Below, piece after piece: positions 4,348-64,000 of a stretch of 64,000 nucleotides of DNA. The notes below the pieces were generated by a model. That model searched no databases, had not been told where the DNA came from, and worked only from the letters and a program-made list of their open reading frames with translations. The stretch spans positions 60,689-124,688 of IMG/VR virus record IMGVR_UViG_3300032117_000009. One strand, given 5' to 3'. The DNA comes from a virus. The position numbers and the translations under genes were made by a program. Numbering within the stretch: the stretch's first letter is position 1; each line of letters begins with the position of its first letter.

Positions 4348-6252
4348 TTACCAATTCTTTTTCTTTGGCGTAAATCTTTCTATGTGAGTTATGCGCTCAG
4401 GTGGGATAGGAGCTTTGGAAACAATTTCTTCTTTACCTATATCGGTAAAACCAGGTCTATCACTATGAAAATTATCTAAATCTACATGGTATAAATCAAA
4501 TTCTTGCGGAGCTGGCCTTCCACTTCTTTCATAAGTATGTTGAATATGATGTGCCCATATTTCTTTGTCTTCATCAGTTGGAGACATATATACATTTGCG
4601 CCAGGATCGATGTACCAATTGTGGTGTTCAATACCGAAAGTTTTCAAACCTTCTTGTTCAATTGATTCACGATTATGAGCAGGAGATACATGGTACGGAA
4701 GAGCTTCTTTGATAGAAGCTTCGACCTGAGGCCCAGTAATATTTGCTTGATCAATTATATATTGAGCGCCTTCAGGATCTTGTGCACCAGGAGCATGTAG
4801 ATTGCTATCTACTGGAGCATCATACCCTTGACCATTTACAGATGCCCAGAATTGCTTAATATGAGTAATCCTATCAGGTGTGATATGACCTTTGTAAACT
4901 ATTTCGTCAACACCCATGTCAGTTTTACGTTTTTCTACCGGAAGACCTTCTGTATTAACATGCCAAAGATCAAAACTATCTGCATCTTGTCGTTCTAAAT
5001 CTATATCTTCTAGATCTGGATACCCAATTGGATCATCAGAATTCCATCTATCCATTTCATGTCGTGATTTAATTTCTTGGCTATGTCTTTCATTACCTAT
5101 TTGATAACCCCAAAGATCTGCATCTTTATCAGTAGGAGACATATAAACTAATGGTTCTATACTAGATGGCCATTTATTTGATTCTTCAGTTCCTGGCAAT
5201 AAACCATTTTCTTCAATAGATTCTCTATGCTCAACTGGGGAAACATGATACGGAATAGCAGTTCTTAAAGAAGCAGTTCTTACATTTGATGGGTGAGTAA
5301 GGCCAATTTGAGTTGGAGTCATGTTTCCTGGGACATAACCAAATTGATCAGGTTCTACTCCAGGAAATTGTTTTGCCCAGCCTCTGCCTTTATAACCATG
5401 ATTATTAGATTCACCATATCTATAAACAGTTACTGGAACATGTGTAAGGCCAAGTTCTTTTGCAGCTATAATTCTATGGTTTCCTTCACCAAGATATGCA
5501 TATCTGTCATTCATATTATAGCTAACTTTTAATGGGTTGATAAAACCATTTTTCAGAAGTGAGCTTTTAATATTGTCTACTGTTGAACGACTATTACCAG
5601 TATCATAAATTGGGTCAAGACGATCAAATTCTCTAATTCTATGAACGTCTTCTAAAGGTACCCATTCAACCTTAACGTGGTTAGCATCACTTTTTTTATT
5701 TGCTTTTGTTAAAGCAATGATATTACTAGTTATATCATTAATAGAAGCATTTTTATTTAAATCTACGTGAAGATTACGAACAGTCTTTGCTTCGGATCTT
5801 GTAGATGCACTTTCTATAAAATAATTATTTAAAATTTTATCCTTGATATCATTTATTGATAAATCTTCTTTGTCAAGAGTAATAACAAAATTATTGCTAT
5901 CTTGCGGAGAAACAATAACAGGATTAAGATTATACCCCTGGAATTGAAGCATCAGGGATTGAATAATTGCTTGTTTGTTTTCTTCAATAATATAAGGAGA
6001 AAACTTACAATTATATTCTATTTTACCATTATCTTCTGTTTTTATAGTTTTAGGTCCATATCGAACATCATCAGTTCCAAGGCCTTTAATATCCCAAAAA
6101 TTGCCAGCATTCTTTTCCATCCACAAATCATGATGTTTTTGTGAACAAAAAACAAGCTCATCTAAACCATTTGAGGCTGTTAACCAATTCCAAGACGTTG
6201 AATTAGGATTTTTGCAATCAATATAATCACAATATATATTGTTAAGTGTCAT
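4348..6252 (-). CDS. Multidomain protein: N-terminal Zn finger, ParB/Srx-like domain, two tandem ADP-ribosyltransferase-fold domains
   Basis: CDYIDC..FCSQKH; IKSSLLKNGFINPL..LGEGNHRIIAAKELGLTHVPV (ParB-like); twice PYHVSP..RESIE.EGL..VYMS..EIV..I.P.RI (Tpt1/KptA/DarT-like ART fold). Confidence 0.75.
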   Translation of the reverse strand: MTLNNIYCDYIDCKNPNSTSWNWLTASNGLDELVFCSQKHHDLWMEKNAGNFWDIKGLGTDDVRYGPKTIKTEDNGKIEYNCKFSPYIIEENKQAIIQSLMLQFQGYNLNPVIVSPQDSNNFVITLDKEDLSINDIKDKILNNYFIESASTRSEAKTVRNLHVDLNKNASINDITSNIIALTKANKKSDANHVKVEWVPLEDVHRIREFDRLDPIYDTGNSRSTVDNIKSSLLKNGFINPLKVSYNMNDRYAYLGEGNHRIIAAKELGLTHVPVTVYRYGESNNHGYKGRGWAKQFPGVEPDQFGYVPGNMTPTQIGLTHPSNVRTASLRTAIPYHVSPVEHRESIEENGLLPGTEESNKWPSSIEPLVYMSPTDKDADLWGYQIGNERHSQEIKSRHEMDRWNSDDPIGYPDLEDIDLERQDADSFDLWHVNTEGLPVEKRKTDMGVDEIVYKGHITPDRITHIKQFWASVNGQGYDAPVDSNLHAPGAQDPEGAQYIIDQANITGPQVEASIKEALPYHVSPAHNRESIEQEGLKTFGIEHHNWYIDPGANVYMSPTDEDKEIWAHHIQHTYERSGRPAPQEFDLYHVDLDNFHSDRPGFTDIGKEEIVSKAPIPPERITHIERFTPKKKNW

Positions 6253-7745: not shown

Positions 7746-9089
7746 TTATTTCTTCCAATCGATTTTTATATAATCTCTACAATCTTCACACAGATTATAC
7801 CAGTCTTTTATTGGGTTTTTGTTATTATTGAAATATTCTTTGTTCATTGTATCATAATATTGCAATGAGCTTTTGTCACTTGGATGGTTGTAAATTTCTA
7901 ATGCTTTGTTGATAGGCACAGTTGGCTTTTGCTCATCCTCGTGCTCTTTAAGCTGCTCATCATAATCATCAATGTTGTTATTGCAAATTCTACAACGGTG
8001 GCGACAATTTTCACAATAATCACTTAAAGGATTGCCATACTTATCTTCATGTTCAGAAGCTTTTGCGTAGCTACCATTATCTATGTCTTTGATCTCTTCA
8101 TCGCAATCTATGCAATTCTTTCGGTGGCTTTCGCAATACTTTGAATCAGTATAGTCCTGATCTGAAATAGCGTCACCACACGTTTCACAATCTTTTCTGT
8201 GGTATTCACAAAGATCTGGGCCATATGGAAGAGCATCTCTTTCATCTTCTGAAAGCTCATCATAACAATCATTACAACATCTTCTGTGCTCTTCACAATA
8301 ATCATAATCTGGGTAATCTTCCTGGTCTTCAATAGAATGGCCACAATCTTGACAATATTTCCTATGATGTTGGCAATATACAGAATCTGGCCAATCCTCG
8401 TGGTCTTCAATATCTTCATTGCAATCTTCGCACTTTGGACGACAATTTCTGCAAAGATCTGAATTGGTATCGTGCTGATCGTAAACTTCTTTTCCACAAT
8501 TTTCACAAAGCTTACGGCAATTTTCACAATGATCAGACTCTGGGTAATCCTCTTGGTCTGCTATCTCATCTCCACATTCTTGACATTCTTTACGGCAATT
8601 TTCACAATATTTAGAATCAGTATCATTCTGATCTGTTATTTCTCTATCGCAATATTCGCAATGTTTACGACAATCTTCACAATATTTAGTACTTGGGTTT
8701 TCTTCAATATCATGGATTGGTTCATCGCAATAATTGCAGTATTTACGGCAATTCTTGCATTGCTTAGTTTCTGCACCAACATAATATAAATGGCTATCTT
8801 CTTTGCCCACATCATCTATTAAACCACGGCATTGATCGCAATAAAGCGTATGATCTGGACAACCTTCAGAACCTGGTATAGCATTTTCATTGCAGTACTT
8901 ACACTTAGAAATAACATTTTGTCTACAATCTCTACACATTCCGCTTGAATGGCCAAGATCTGATGTGCTTAATCTATCACCACAATTACTACATGATTCA
9001 TGATCATTAATAATTTTAGGATATGGGTGTTGCCAATTAGGTCTAGCTGTTTTGCTAAAAAATTCTTCTTGCGTCCAAAACTCTTCCAT
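7746..9089 (-). CDS. Tandem Zn-ribbon repeat protein (about 13 repeats of ~26 aa)
   Basis: Repeat CxxC..I.D..D.P.S.YCxx[CH]RK, e.g. HCEYCDREITDQNDTDSKYCENCRK; ends IDWKK. Confidence 0.85.
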   Translation of the reverse strand: MEEFWTQEEFFSKTARPNWQHPYPKIINDHESCSNCGDRLSTSDLGHSSGMCRDCRQNVISKCKYCNENAIPGSEGCPDHTLYCDQCRGLIDDVGKEDSHLYYVGAETKQCKNCRKYCNYCDEPIHDIEENPSTKYCEDCRKHCEYCDREITDQNDTDSKYCENCRKECQECGDEIADQEDYPESDHCENCRKLCENCGKEVYDQHDTNSDLCRNCRPKCEDCNEDIEDHEDWPDSVYCQHHRKYCQDCGHSIEDQEDYPDYDYCEEHRRCCNDCYDELSEDERDALPYGPDLCEYHRKDCETCGDAISDQDYTDSKYCESHRKNCIDCDEEIKDIDNGSYAKASEHEDKYGNPLSDYCENCRHRCRICNNNIDDYDEQLKEHEDEQKPTVPINKALEIYNHPSDKSSLQYYDTMNKEYFNNNKNPIKDWYNLCEDCRDYIKIDWKK

Positions 9090-60316: not shown

Positions 60317-60818
60317 GAGATGACATTAACCCTTCTGTACTATTGTCCACATTATTATTTTTTTTATCTTCTTGCAACTCACAGTATAACATGTCTTGTA
60401 TCCATTTTGCATTTTTTTTGAATGCATTTATGGTAATGACGCCATCTACAGATTTAAGCTTACCCTGATGTTTATCAAATAATATTTTTATCATTGGACC
60501 AGCATCATCGCCATATCTATTTTTAAAATCATCAAATATTTGGATATCACTATTGTCTGCTGAAACAAACTCATATCCATGTACTTCTTTGAATCTTTTC
60601 AAAAAATATTGTTGCAACTTATAGCCATCTACAAGAGGTATTTCAGTATTGCAAGATTCAATATCTGAATTTATAACTTCTTGCAATTTTGTTGGTTCTT
60701 CTTTTTTAAGCAAACTTTCTATTGGTTTTGATTTTGCGCTTTCTTTATCAATGAATTCAACACTATAATCATTTGTATCAAAATCTCTTAACTCAACTTC
60801 AAGCTGCTTTATTTCCAT
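60282..60818 (-). CDS. Hypothetical protein, possible replication initiator C-terminal domain
   Basis: Directly upstream of the DnaC-like loader; the function is inference from position. Confidence 0.55.
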   Translation of the reverse strand: MEIKQLEVELRDFDTNDYSVEFIDKESAKSKPIESLLKKEEPTKLQEVINSDIESCNTEIPLVDGYKLQQYFLKRFKEVHGYEFVSADNSDIQIFDDFKNRYGDDAGPMIKILFDKHQGKLKSVDGVITINAFKKNAKWIQDMLYCELQEDKKNNNVDNSTEGLMSSHDFIRFFSVAE

Positions 60819-60819
60819 T

Positions 60820-61170
60820 TTACTTCTTCTTGTCTAGAAAAGTTTTGCTTACAGTAGAAAACGTATGAATCTTACGCTGCACATAATCCTTGACAGCTAT
60901 ATCAAGGTCATTACTTGTTGCGCCAGTAGAATGAATTGAAATCACTTTACCACGATTTAGTAAGATTAATTCCCAATCTTTTCCTTTGCTGTACTGATCC
61001 TCATTTTTGCCACAAATTTGAATCCAATTATCATCGAGGCCACAAATAAAACCTATAAAATTATCATTAGGAGTTGTTACCTGGACCTCTTCTTCTTTAC
61101 TTGCTTTGATAGCAATATTGCGCTCAAACATTGTGTTCCAATTTTGGGCTAAATTCTTAACTTCATTCAT
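60820..61170 (-). CDS. Hypothetical protein
   Basis: ORF with RBS in the operon. Confidence 0.6.
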   Translation of the reverse strand: MNEVKNLAQNWNTMFERNIAIKASKEEEVQVTTPNDNFIGFICGLDDNWIQICGKNEDQYSKGKDWELILLNRGKVISIHSTGATSNDLDIAVKDYVQRKIHTFSTVSKTFLDKKK

Positions 61171-61189: not shown

Positions 61190-61720
61190 TTACTGAATTA
61201 ATGAACCAAAGCTGGCTCTAGTTGTTACTTTTGTATCTTGTTTTCTAGCCCCTCTCATGGCCATGCACAGGTGTTCAGCTTTAACCTTTACGGTTATCCC
61301 AGCTGGTCGCAAACTGCTTTGATATAAAGCTGTTGCTATCTGCTGTGTCAGTGTTTCTTGAGACTGAAGCCTTTTTGAGTAAACGTCTATAACTCTACCA
61401 AATTTTGATACATCTAAAATTTTTCCATCTCTTGGAATGTATGTAATATCAACATTACCAAAAAATGGTATAAAATGATGTTCACAAACGCTATAAAACT
61501 TTATATCATTTACTGATATAAGATCATTTGCGCTAGATTCATAGATTGAATTTTTAATAAGGTTATTGACATTTTGCGTATAGCCATGAATCATTTCGTG
61601 CAAATAAAATTTTGCAACTCTTTCAGGCGTATCTTTTAACCCTGGTCTATTTACATCTTCTCCTGGAATAGCTTCCAGCATTTTGTAAATTGCTGTTTGA
61701 AAATCGGTAAATGCACTCAT
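61190..61720 (-). CDS. folE: GTP cyclohydrolase I (FolE type), C-terminally short
   Basis: GLKDTPERVAK, SVCEHH, SKF.R, RLQSQE.LT, EHLCMAMRG. Confidence 0.9.
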   Translation of the reverse strand: MSAFTDFQTAIYKMLEAIPGEDVNRPGLKDTPERVAKFYLHEMIHGYTQNVNNLIKNSIYESSANDLISVNDIKFYSVCEHHFIPFFGNVDITYIPRDGKILDVSKFGRVIDVYSKRLQSQETLTQQIATALYQSSLRPAGITVKVKAEHLCMAMRGARKQDTKVTTRASFGSLIQ

Positions 61721-61785: not shown

Positions 61786-62844
61786 TCAAAAAGTTGTTAT
61801 ATCTCCGCCATAAACTAACATGTCGTCTATTTCATCATAAGGTTCATAAAAATATGGGAACTGCATTGAACCAATATCACAATATCTTGGGATATCAACT
61901 TCCCAACCAGCTACCATATGACCCAAAGTATTTTCTTCAATAGCTATTGAGCTAATAATTTTTTCATATTCAATAACGAATTCTTCAATTTCTTCTTCGT
62001 TTTTTGTTTCTATTAATCTAACATCGCCATACAACGGTGAAAGAAATTCTAAATTATCAAAATTAGATTTTTTTACGTTTGGGAAAATAAAATTCGTAAG
62101 TGATTGCTCATGTACTATTAAAGATTTTTTAGATAAAGGTAATTTAGCCCTAAATTCTTTAATTATATCTTGTTCATTGTTAATACAATCAGCTATGTAT
62201 ATTAACTGATCATCCGAAAGCTTTCCTAGAGTAATATAAAATTTTGGAGATAAAGTGCCTTCGCCAAAAAAAGAAATAAAATCTCCAACTAACCCTGCTA
62301 GATTATCTTCGTTTTCCAAGCATTCTTTACTTACAATGCCAAAACTGAATTTTGGTTTATGCAAATAAACATTTCTATTCTTTTTTGGCTCCATATTAAA
62401 GAAAGATAAAGTGTCTATGCCACCATAAACAATTACATCAGTTGCATCTTCTACATCTCTTAACCATGCACCACTTGACGATAGCTCATCTTTTTTGCTT
62501 TGATAAACAGAATATTCACCATCATTATATTTTGAATTTTGCTTAAACATTTCCTCAAGCAAAATTGCTTCATCTTTTCCTGATACTTTTACGGTTATAT
62601 TTTGTGGTTTCGCTAACGCATAGGCCAGAAAAGCACTTTTTGTCACGAGCATTGGTGTTTCATAAGAACCAATTATAACAATTTTTCTATTTGAAGTATC
62701 TGTCTTGTCAACTCTTTCCCAAAAATTTTTTGGAATTTCGTTATGAGACATTGACATGTAATAATCGTCTTCTAAAAACAATCCATTCTCGCTACATAAT
62801 CTAGCAATAGAGTCAGATGGATCAATAATATAATTAGAATTCAT
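61786..62844 (-). CDS. LuxC-like acyl-CoA reductase fold, catalytic Cys apparently replaced by Thr
   Basis: DVIVYGG.DT, H.PKFSFGIV, L.GDF..FFGEGTLSPK, G..Q.P. Confidence 0.65.
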   Translation of the reverse strand: MNSNYIIDPSDSIARLCSENGLFLEDDYYMSMSHNEIPKNFWERVDKTDTSNRKIVIIGSYETPMLVTKSAFLAYALAKPQNITVKVSGKDEAILLEEMFKQNSKYNDGEYSVYQSKKDELSSSGAWLRDVEDATDVIVYGGIDTLSFFNMEPKKNRNVYLHKPKFSFGIVSKECLENEDNLAGLVGDFISFFGEGTLSPKFYITLGKLSDDQLIYIADCINNEQDIIKEFRAKLPLSKKSLIVHEQSLTNFIFPNVKKSNFDNLEFLSPLYGDVRLIETKNEEEIEEFVIEYEKIISSIAIEENTLGHMVAGWEVDIPRYCDIGSMQFPYFYEPYDEIDDMLVYGGDITTF

Positions 62845-62874
62845 AATTTTGTTTACTTTCTTAAATTGATCCAG

Positions 62875-63900
62875 CTATGTTTCTTTTATTATTATACCGC
62901 CTCTTGGCCCAATTTTACCATAATAATTTGTAAGTATAAATGGGCAAGACCAAAAATTTGCTAAATCATATATTGCAATTTTGCCATATTGCCCAGTTTT
63001 AACATCATTATTGTTTTTTTCATCAACTACCCTAACTCTTATCCATGGGCTAAAAAAATATTCTGTAGTCTCAGGCAATTTATTATATTTGCATGATTCG
63101 AGTATTGATTTTTTTGTTAAGGAATAAAATTGAGATGTTAAGCCTGGTACGTATGCCAGCTTAATAATACTATTTAAATCAAATATATTGCAAATATTAT
63201 AGATATCTTCTAAAGAACTTTTTGCACTTATTTCTTTTAATTCTATAAACATTGAACCGAGTGGCAGATGTATGCCATCTACATAATTTTTAGATTCAGC
63301 ATTATATTTTTTAACAAGTTCTTGTATCATTACGCTTGTAACCATAAACACTGTTGGTATCTTAACTTTTATTTCTTCATTTTCTTTTTCTACAAGTTTT
63401 TCTACCAGTTGAGCAAAATCATTTATTTCGTTCAAATAAGTTCCATGAAAAGATTCAAAAATATATTCAATTATATAATTTTCTAAGCTTTGCTCAGAAT
63501 ATTTAGCTATGCCAACATAATTAATCCATGGGACCCAATCATCTTCATTTAGAATATTTTTTGGGAATGACTTAGCGATATTATATTTATATAGCTCTGT
63601 ATCTCTAATATAATGCTCGCTACTATTAGTTTTTAAAACAATGCCAGGATATGGCATTTTTGTATCTATTTTTAAGCCCAAATTTTGCCCTGCGGATAAA
63701 TTATTTATTGGCATAAGGGGTATATCATCTAAATTTGAAGCAATTTTTCTACCGCAAATAGAATAGTAATAATCGTTCATTTCATGATGCAATCTATACA
63801 ATTTTAAAGCCATTGCTTCAAAATCTGCATCTGATCTGCTGCCTGAATTAATAAATTTTTTGGTTTCTAATATACAGTTTTCAAGCATATTTGTTTTCAT
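62875..63900 (-). CDS. LuxE-like acyl-protein synthetase fold with degenerate ATP-binding loop
   Basis: F..MAL..Y......YY, IPLMP, H..RD..LY, LPLGS, SQFY, SPWIRV, DLAN..SC.FI.T; no SSGTT motif. Confidence 0.7.
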   Translation of the reverse strand: MKTNMLENCILETKKFINSGSRSDADFEAMALKLYRLHHEMNDYYYSICGRKIASNLDDIPLMPINNLSAGQNLGLKIDTKMPYPGIVLKTNSSEHYIRDTELYKYNIAKSFPKNILNEDDWVPWINYVGIAKYSEQSLENYIIEYIFESFHGTYLNEINDFAQLVEKLVEKENEEIKVKIPTVFMVTSVMIQELVKKYNAESKNYVDGIHLPLGSMFIELKEISAKSSLEDIYNICNIFDLNSIIKLAYVPGLTSQFYSLTKKSILESCKYNKLPETTEYFFSPWIRVRVVDEKNNNDVKTGQYGKIAIYDLANFWSCPFILTNYYGKIGPRGGIIIKET

Positions 63901-64000
63901 TGTAATACTTTAAGTTATTAAACTTTTTTCCTACACTCAATTCATTGCCATTCCATAATGTACCAGTTACCCATTTAGTTTTTATACTATTGAACCCAAG
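63881..64000 (-). CDS. 3' end of an upstream gene, truncated by the window edge
   Basis: Open frame LGFNSIKTKWVTGTLWNGNELSVGKKFNNLKYYNENKYA* overlapping the start of the LuxE-like gene. Confidence 0.55.
   Translation of the reverse strand, partial: LGFNSIKTKWVTGTLWNGNELSVGKKFNNLKYYNENKYA

Follow-up and report, generated by a model that had tools for sequence, protein, structure and literature searches.

LuxE-like and LuxC-like pseudoenzymes derived from a 7-deazaguanine module are retained together in a viral replication locus

Why should a virus keep two adjacent genes that resemble those of a fatty acid reductase when neither product carries the residues on which that reaction depends? The question is raised by a stretch of 64,000 nucleotides, here called the window, which comprises positions 60,689 to 124,688 (the right half) of the 124,688-bp viral record IMGVR_UViG_3300032117_000009 and encodes on its minus strand a LuxE-like protein of 341 amino acids (positions 62875..63900) followed by a LuxC-like protein of 352 amino acids (61786..62844). 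An earlier examination of the letters alone, hereafter the sequence-only reading, had described the two open reading frames (ORFs) as open and adjacent, exactly as we found them, and had regarded their products as repurposed pseudoenzymes. We report that the catalytic signatures are gone from both proteins, as that reading held, and that their ORFs are nonetheless intact and under constraint, that they descend from a 7-deazaguanine module that is intact in related phages, and that the loss of catalytic residues has occurred repeatedly. With slightly better than even confidence, we suggest that they are a selectively retained, noncatalytic pair, which may bind a ligand or a partner and may have its role in connection with FolE or the replication module.

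The two proteins gave little when searched singly. The LuxC-like protein scored 12.2 bits against PF05893, below the cut-off of 21, and produced only a marginal match in PHROGs (E value of 0.008, to a family of unknown function) and nothing in NCBIfam. The LuxE-like protein had no Pfam match and nothing significant in PHROGs or NCBIfam, and a single-sequence phmmer comparison with LuxE (PDB 7xc6_E) returned an E value of 0.025. A tblastn search of 50,697 phage records gave no match for the LuxE-like protein, the LuxC-like protein, or an intact LuxC relative. Relatives drawn from large protein collections were used to build family profiles, and with these the relationships became clear: the LuxC-like profile matched LuxC (7xc6_A) with an E value of 4.9e-7, the profile of the LuxE-like clade matched LuxE (7xc6_E) with an E value of 3.5e-10, and PF05893 and PF04443 were matched by 12 of 12 LuxC-like relatives (best E value, 5.4e-14) and 6 of 9 LuxE-like relatives, respectively. 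The structures predicted with AlphaFold agree. The model of the LuxC-like protein (predicted local distance difference test, or pLDDT, of 90.0) found 7xc6_A as its top Foldseek match (E value, 2.6e-10), followed by aldehyde dehydrogenases (ALDHs), and that of the LuxE-like protein (AlphaFold; pLDDT, 88.7), which has the ANL/LuxE fold, had its best PDB matches among the compact adenylating ligases of the EhpF and PaaK types (PDB 3HGU/3L2K and 2Y27; E values of about 1e-9; template modeling [TM] scores of 0.56 to 0.62), with the LuxE cluster as its nearest structural cluster in the ESM Atlas (TM, 0.81). Identity to the EhpF and PaaK-type enzymes is only 9 to 14%, and the ATP-binding P-loop of PaaK1 is deleted in the window's protein. 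The two proteins are thus true, very distant homologues of LuxE and LuxC that are recognizable only through family profiles and predicted folds. A scan of the genomes of 185,579 species with a pattern from the Cys-bearing LuxC-like alignment returned no cellular relatives, a result that is limited by the pattern and constitutes weak evidence of absence.

The extent of the catalytic damage becomes apparent on comparison with the LuxC-LuxE fatty acid reductase of Photobacterium phosphoreum (PDB 7XC6), which has the same two folds and adjacent genes, the order here being LuxE and then LuxC. In that complex, LuxE requires Lys238 (within GGGWK) and Arg355 and is inactivated by the K238A substitution, its acylation site being Cys364 of a TRxxKGCxLS motif at the C terminus, and LuxC requires Cys296, activity being abolished by C296A (PMC9157457). 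The window's pair lacks the P-loop, K238, R355, and C364 of LuxE and the C296 of LuxC. Intact phage relatives of the LuxE-like protein align to LuxE almost end to end and carry SSGTT, ETGGWKGR, LEGR, and EKGCSLT, whereas the window's protein and 11 members of its clade have gaps in place of both the P-loop and GGWKG and stop short of the tail that holds the Arg and the Cys, so that all four catalytic elements are missing. At the P-loop site (residues 87 to 99; 63604..63642, minus strand), approximately six residues are deleted relative to the SSGTT(Q/K) of intact relatives (…LKTNSSEHYIRD…); at the Lys site (residues 217 to 226; 63223..63252, minus strand), the ETGGWKGR segment corresponding to LuxE Lys238 is deleted or replaced; and the C terminus, …GGIIIKET, falls short of the (L)EGR segment and of the acyl-Cys motif present as EKGCSLT in intact relatives. 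A regular-expression match to a P-loop in the LuxE-like protein of another locus, L033, was rejected because it lies at a different site.

The LuxC-like protein is approximately 125 amino acids shorter than LuxC, with neither its N-terminal extension nor its C-terminal oligomerization element, and has Thr197 (codon ACT; 62254..62256, minus strand) at the position of the acyl-accepting Cys (Cys286/296), the motif G-E-G-T-L-S-P aligning on the Q-Q-A-C-F-S of LuxC in the profile comparison with 7xc6_A. This codon is two changes from TGT or TGC. In an alignment of 35 LuxC-like proteins, the nucleophile position holds Cys in 15, Thr in 9, Arg in 3, Ser in 3, Lys in 2, Ile in 2, and Val in 1, within a flanking G-E-G-x-L-[SA]-P-[KR]-F-Y that is almost fixed, and within the window's own clade it is variously Thr, Lys, Ile, Val, or Ser. 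A second segment shows the same division in its group-wise conservation: the loop at residues 60 to 68 (62641..62667, minus strand), which aligns to the AGNVPL of LuxC, never varies among Cys-bearing relatives (G-A-x-S-V-P-x-A-T-A), whereas in the Cys-less clades it is no longer so constrained. Sequencing error and recent pseudogene formation were ruled out, as the losses are common to 12 LuxE-like and 13 LuxC-like diverged relatives of the clade and the Thr codon is two changes away from Cys. Profile alignment and comparison with LuxE and the intact relatives therefore bear out what had been noted from the letters, namely, a Thr in place of the LuxC nucleophile, a LuxE-like protein without SSGTT or GG.KG that stops before the GR region, and the improbability of a sequencing error. 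Judged by the residues that are present, the two proteins are incapable of the reactions that LuxE and LuxC catalyze.

It is conceivable that the pair is still an enzyme, catalysis having moved to C322 of the LuxC-like protein or to C319 of the LuxE-like protein (WSCPF) or proceeding without a thioester or adenylate, perhaps on a pterin derived from FolE. Both of these Cys residues are nearly invariant, the LuxC-like proteins of the window's clade retain K86, D91/E92, G141, T145, and K165/S167, the LuxE-like protein retains a highly conserved pocket region (residues 80 to 127) and an invariant D312, which we take to be the ribose-binding Asp of ANL enzymes, and FolE is always adjacent. However, C322 and C319 are equally conserved in catalytically intact relatives and are therefore not compensatory replacements, which makes a relocated active site unlikely; the equivalents of the P-loop, Lys238, and Arg355, comprising everything known to bind or orient ATP, are gone; and we know of no enzyme with the ALDH fold that works without the Cys. 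The nucleophile position, moreover, drifts among Thr, Lys, Ile, Val, Ser, and Arg, and this free variation also counts against the new chemistry that the sequence-only reading had entertained. We consider continued catalysis in any of these forms unlikely.

The ancestry of the pair is revealed by relatives that have kept their catalytic motifs. A scan of viral contigs yielded 34 related loci, making 35 with the window, and clustering of their genes distinguished three arrangements. One of these, type A, is represented by 11 loci (L004 to L010, L012, L013 [identical to L002], L020, and L034; for example, L005:3871-14000) and opens with two or three amidoligase-like genes, after which come, in this sequence, a methyltransferase-like gene, a gene of cluster c27, the gene for a 5'-3' flap exonuclease (FEN), LuxE with all of its motifs, LuxC with its Cys, a class-III aminotransferase (E value, 5e-77), QueD/PTPS (6e-32), a QueE-like radical-SAM protein (phrog_2076; 2e-60), FolE, and a dCTP-deaminase-like gene. 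By tblastn and hhalign, c27 was found to resemble the DpdA of Flavobacterium phage immuto_2-6A (hhalign, 98%; E value, 2.4e-13); searches for DpdA with PF01702 and PF23859 and a PDB profile search with c27 returned nothing. QueC, QueF, and a canonical TGT were not found in eight type A records that are 28 to 84% complete. FolE, QueD, and QueE make 7-carboxy-7-deazaguanine (CDG), a carboxylic acid; LuxE and LuxC reduce a carboxylate to an aldehyde; and class-III aminotransferases interconvert aldehydes and primary amines. On this gene content, the type A module most likely converts CDG via the aldehyde to preQ1 for phage DNA. LuxE would activate CDG with ATP and acylate itself on its C-terminal Cys, LuxC would reduce the thioester to 7-formyl-7-deazaguanine, the aminotransferase would turn this aldehyde into preQ1, and the DpdA-like DNA guanine transglycosylase would insert preQ1 into phage DNA, the whole proceeding without QueC or QueF. 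Given the amidoligase and methyltransferase genes, the amine may be decorated further.

Phage immuto_2-6A, with whose DpdA c27 aligns, has its guanines replaced by a preQ1 derivative (PMC10516641). Described phage 7-deazaguanine systems combine DpdA with FolE, QueD, QueE, and QueC, with or without QueF (Hutinet 2019, PMC6884629; Cui 2023, PMC10516641); type A likewise has a DpdA-like gene, FolE, QueD, and QueE but has LuxE, LuxC, and a class-III aminotransferase in place of QueC and QueF, whereas the window's phage keeps only FolE and has no DpdA. Neither of these two main papers mentions LuxE, LuxC, or a class-III aminotransferase. The literature searched contained nothing combining LuxE with preQ1 and no route from CDG through an aldehyde to preQ1, the aldehyde appearing there only as a by-product of QueF mutants. 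The setting is one of phage nucleotide metabolism and replication, in contrast to the lipid metabolism of LuxC-LuxE systems, and a role in fatty acid reduction or bioluminescence was rejected, there being no LuxD, no luciferase, and no catalytic residues. The framing of the sequence-only reading in terms of long-chain aldehydes finds no support in this context, but the tie to FolE that it proposed has proved well founded: FolE, LuxE, and LuxC belong to one ancestral 7-deazaguanine module that is intact in related phages.

Little of this module survives in the window's virus. What is labeled a direct terminal repeat in the record is an exact 127-bp overlap (window positions 63874 to 64000 equal L003:1-127, L003 being the start of the record), and the assembly is therefore circular and the genome complete. 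Under tblastn conditions for which the type A records served as positive controls, this complete genome contained no DpdA-like, QueD, QueE, aminotransferase, amidoligase, or dCTP-deaminase-like gene, and QueC was not found in it; the search returned only FolE, apparently intact, along with the dead pair and a thymidylate-kinase-like gene. A different outcome is seen in type B (22 loci), in which LuxE has been lost and a LuxC-like gene is kept directly after FEN, with Cys at the nucleophile position in 7 loci and Ser, Arg, or Thr in the other 15.

These losses are independent of one another. In a tree of 52 LuxC-like proteins, the outgroup and every type A member carry Cys, and the topology calls for at least three losses: one in the window's clade, which is sister to the Cys-bearing P0034 and L004, a second in a clade comprising L033, P0013, and P0055, and a third within type B. 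The LuxE tree requires two independent degenerations, the LuxE-like proteins of the window's clade deriving from an intact LuxE of the L004 type, with which they have in common RDTE-YK-SIAKSFP, VPWINF, ESFHG, and a 12-residue insertion, and that of L033 deriving from a LuxE of the L005/L007 type. The direction of change is one of loss, because the outgroups (LuxE itself and the bacterial homologue P0032) carry the motifs. The window's lineage has lost the transglycosylase, QueD, QueE, and the aminotransferase, its LuxE has been stripped of the P-loop and the catalytic Lys, Arg, and acyl-Cys by deletions and truncation, and its LuxC has lost the nucleophile and the constraint on the nearby active-site loop. 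The second degenerate pair (L033:8929-11500, from IMGVR_UViG_3300014838_000020), a degenerate LuxE-like protein with a Ser-bearing LuxC-like protein, lies on very long branches and is followed not by FolE but by a 138-amino-acid gene assigned to cluster c94; the protein representing that cluster, from L031, matches the YspA/SLOG family (PF10686).

Loss of catalysis has not been followed by loss of the genes. All 12 LuxE-like and 13 LuxC-like members of the window's clade are full length (337 to 363 amino acids) at 36 to 68% identity, with no stops or frameshifts and with 62 and 75 invariant columns, respectively, and the order kinase-like gene, FEN, LuxE-like, LuxC-like, FolE, Hfq-like, DnaC-like, DnaB, and primase is identical in the window and five freshwater metagenomic loci (6/6). 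Nonsynonymous divergence (pN) was compared between genes because synonymous sites are saturated in this clade (synonymous divergence [pS], 0.6 to 0.7): the LuxC-like gene, at 0.22, is in line with FolE (0.20), FEN (0.19), and primase (0.18), and the LuxE-like gene, at 0.37, is the highest of the block and well under pS. The ratio of nonsynonymous to synonymous substitution rates (dN/dS) among homologues, a comparison that the sequence-only reading had proposed, was saturated for most pairs; where dS was usable, it was 0.13 to 0.20 for the LuxC-like genes of type B and 0.14 to 0.26 for those of type A, but the window's clade is saturated, and values of 0.47 and 0.64 for the window's pair against L004/L033 are near saturation and were not relied on. 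The constraint that has been lifted from the LuxC-like protein is local to the active site: of the 103 positions that Cys-bearing proteins conserve, the window's clade has kept 65 and type B has kept 70. Those released from constraint include the nucleophile, its neighbor S199 (replaced by Ala), and residues 60 to 68, and the cofactor-domain motifs VK(86), DE(91-92), YGG(141), T145, and PKFS(165-167) do not vary in the window's clade. Where the pair is intact, LuxE is slightly the more conserved of the two (58% identity, against 53% for LuxC), and in the window's clade this is reversed (46% and 63%), so that the constraint on the LuxE-like protein has been relaxed but has not gone. Taking a pseudoenzyme to be an enzyme homologue that is missing its catalytic residues and has an ORF kept by selection, both proteins are pseudoenzymes, selection being read from the unbroken ORFs, the pattern in their conservation, and pN relative to that of adjacent genes.

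A less charitable view of these data is that the two genes are relics on the way out, no longer useful and not yet destroyed, their conservation reflecting inertia. The rest of the pathway has gone from the window's genome, the LuxE-like gene has the highest nonsynonymous divergence in the block and is missing altogether from type B, and one LuxC-like gene (in L036) is split. Such an account sits poorly with a clade whose diverged members are nonetheless all full length and share so many invariant columns, with a LuxC-like gene that is evolving at the slow pace of FolE, FEN, and primase, and with the same retention having arisen independently in at least two lineages. Neutral decay is unlikely when the ORFs are intact, conservation is patterned, and retention has recurred independently, and we regard it as improbable that the genes are relics.

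FolE, a GTP cyclohydrolase I, lies immediately downstream (61190..61720, minus strand; Pfam E value, 1.2e-55; NCBIfam NF006826, 193.9 bits against a cut-off of 162), followed by a phage Hfq-like protein (60820-61170, minus strand; PF23874, E value of 2.3e-8) and then by the DnaC-like, DnaB, primase, and DnaE genes. The point at which the record is opened lies in the first part of the LuxE-like gene and the last part of the FEN gene, and the start of the former falls within the terminal overlap; the window accordingly holds only the 3' end of FEN (63881..64000, minus strand; Pfam E value, 1e-37), the remainder being at L003:8..973, and the end of FEN overlaps the start of the LuxE-like gene by 20 nucleotides. 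The gene upstream, which the sequence-only reading had wished to see, is therefore FEN, adjoining the LuxE-like gene across the origin of the circular record. That reading had called the pair unusual cargo ahead of replication genes, but its position between FEN and the replication genes is conserved in all 35 loci, and the location in the replication module has been inherited, not acquired. Between the genes, the coding strand showed no terminator-like site, and matches resembling promoters were no more than chance would give.

Several other genes of the region were noted. In nearly all of the 35 loci, the Hfq-like gene is kept between the modification module and the DnaC-like, DnaB, and primase genes. 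A P-loop protein resembling thymidylate kinase (phrog_2107, AAA_28), found only with type A and the window's clade (L003:1787-2443, minus strand, and L004:4791-5438), may serve the modification pathway as a nucleotide kinase; in immuto_2-6A, a thymidylate kinase is encoded beside DpdA, and in type A the thymidylate-kinase-like gene is nearby. Further upstream, the genome encodes a DenV-type pyrimidine-dimer glycosylase, a macro-domain protein, and an Rpf-like transglycosylase (L003:3993-4409, 4772-5251, and 7914-8411, respectively, all on the minus strand), the last of which is typical of phages of actinobacteria.

What, then, might the pair do? A part in counter-defense or host interference, as a sponge for a nucleotide-derived signal or NAD(P) or as a dominant-negative partner of a host enzyme, would fit the Rossmann-type cofactor motifs kept in the LuxC-like proteins of the window's clade, the intact predicted folds, and the conserved pockets, and phage proteins that evolve rapidly and are retained are typical of host-interaction roles. 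We give this possibility little credence, however: there is no likeness to a known sponge or anti-defense family (PHROGs gave nothing significant; PADLOC was not searched), the pattern scan of genomes produced no close cellular relative for a dominant-negative protein to mimic, the cofactor-site residue K86 is itself eroding in type B while the gene is still kept, and the location in the replication module is an inherited one.

We prefer to see the proteins as a retained pair that would act not by chemistry but by binding, whether to each other, to NADP(H) or a metabolite of the purine or pterin type, or to some other phage protein; the sponge and the inhibitor suggested in the sequence-only reading would be special cases of such a pair. 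The segments of the LuxE-like protein that still align to LuxE (residues 33 to 86 and 241 to 336) match the LuxE segments resolved at the LuxC interface in the cryo-electron microscopy map (33 to 91 and 290 to 338; PMC9157457), a correspondence that is consistent with a preserved interaction. Considered jointly with the type A loci, the data lead us to propose, tentatively and at somewhat less than even confidence, that the intact relatives encode an undescribed QueC- and QueF-independent preQ1-type route and that the LuxC-like scaffold, accompanied by the LuxE-like protein in two lineages, has a catalysis-independent function, for example as an NADP(H)- or purine-binding regulator or sponge, that has preserved it through at least three independent pathway collapses. 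Retention without the nucleophile has precedents in the ALDH superfamily, inactive members of which lack the Cys; they include lens crystallins and ALDH16A1, are eukaryotic, and have structural or unknown roles. Like them, the LuxC-like protein retains the ALDH fold under selection after loss of the nucleophile; unlike them, it belongs to a virus and has as its partner an adenylating-enzyme homologue that is just as dead.

A number of observations weigh against this interpretation. Each protein has a second conserved Cys (C322 in the LuxC-like protein and C319 in the LuxE-like protein); saturation of synonymous sites in the window's clade makes absolute dN/dS values unreliable; the LuxE-like gene is the fastest evolving in the block, with its rate reversed relative to that of the LuxC-like gene, which fits partly relaxed selection; the type A records are incomplete, and QueC or QueF could lie on the missing parts; and the substrate of the intact pathway is read from gene neighborhood only. 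In one type B locus (L036:10001-11100, from IMGVR_UViG_3300025430_000015), moreover, the LuxC-like gene is split into ORFs of 154 and 214 amino acids through a frameshift, a sequencing error, or genuine pseudogene formation, and if the last applies, the gene can be dispensable.

In summary, the locus provides a clear natural case in which two partner enzymes have become pseudoenzymes together and have repeatedly been kept in viral genomes. Useless genes are normally purged quickly from such genomes, and the repeated keeping of a dead pair therefore implies a noncatalytic role that is worth finding. If our reading of the type A set is correct, its products make an aminomethyl-deazaguanine base through carboxylate reduction and transamination, a chemistry absent from the phage 7-deazaguanine literature that we searched. 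For the annotation of phage genomes, it follows that matches to LuxE and LuxC should not be read as fatty acid or bioluminescence genes.

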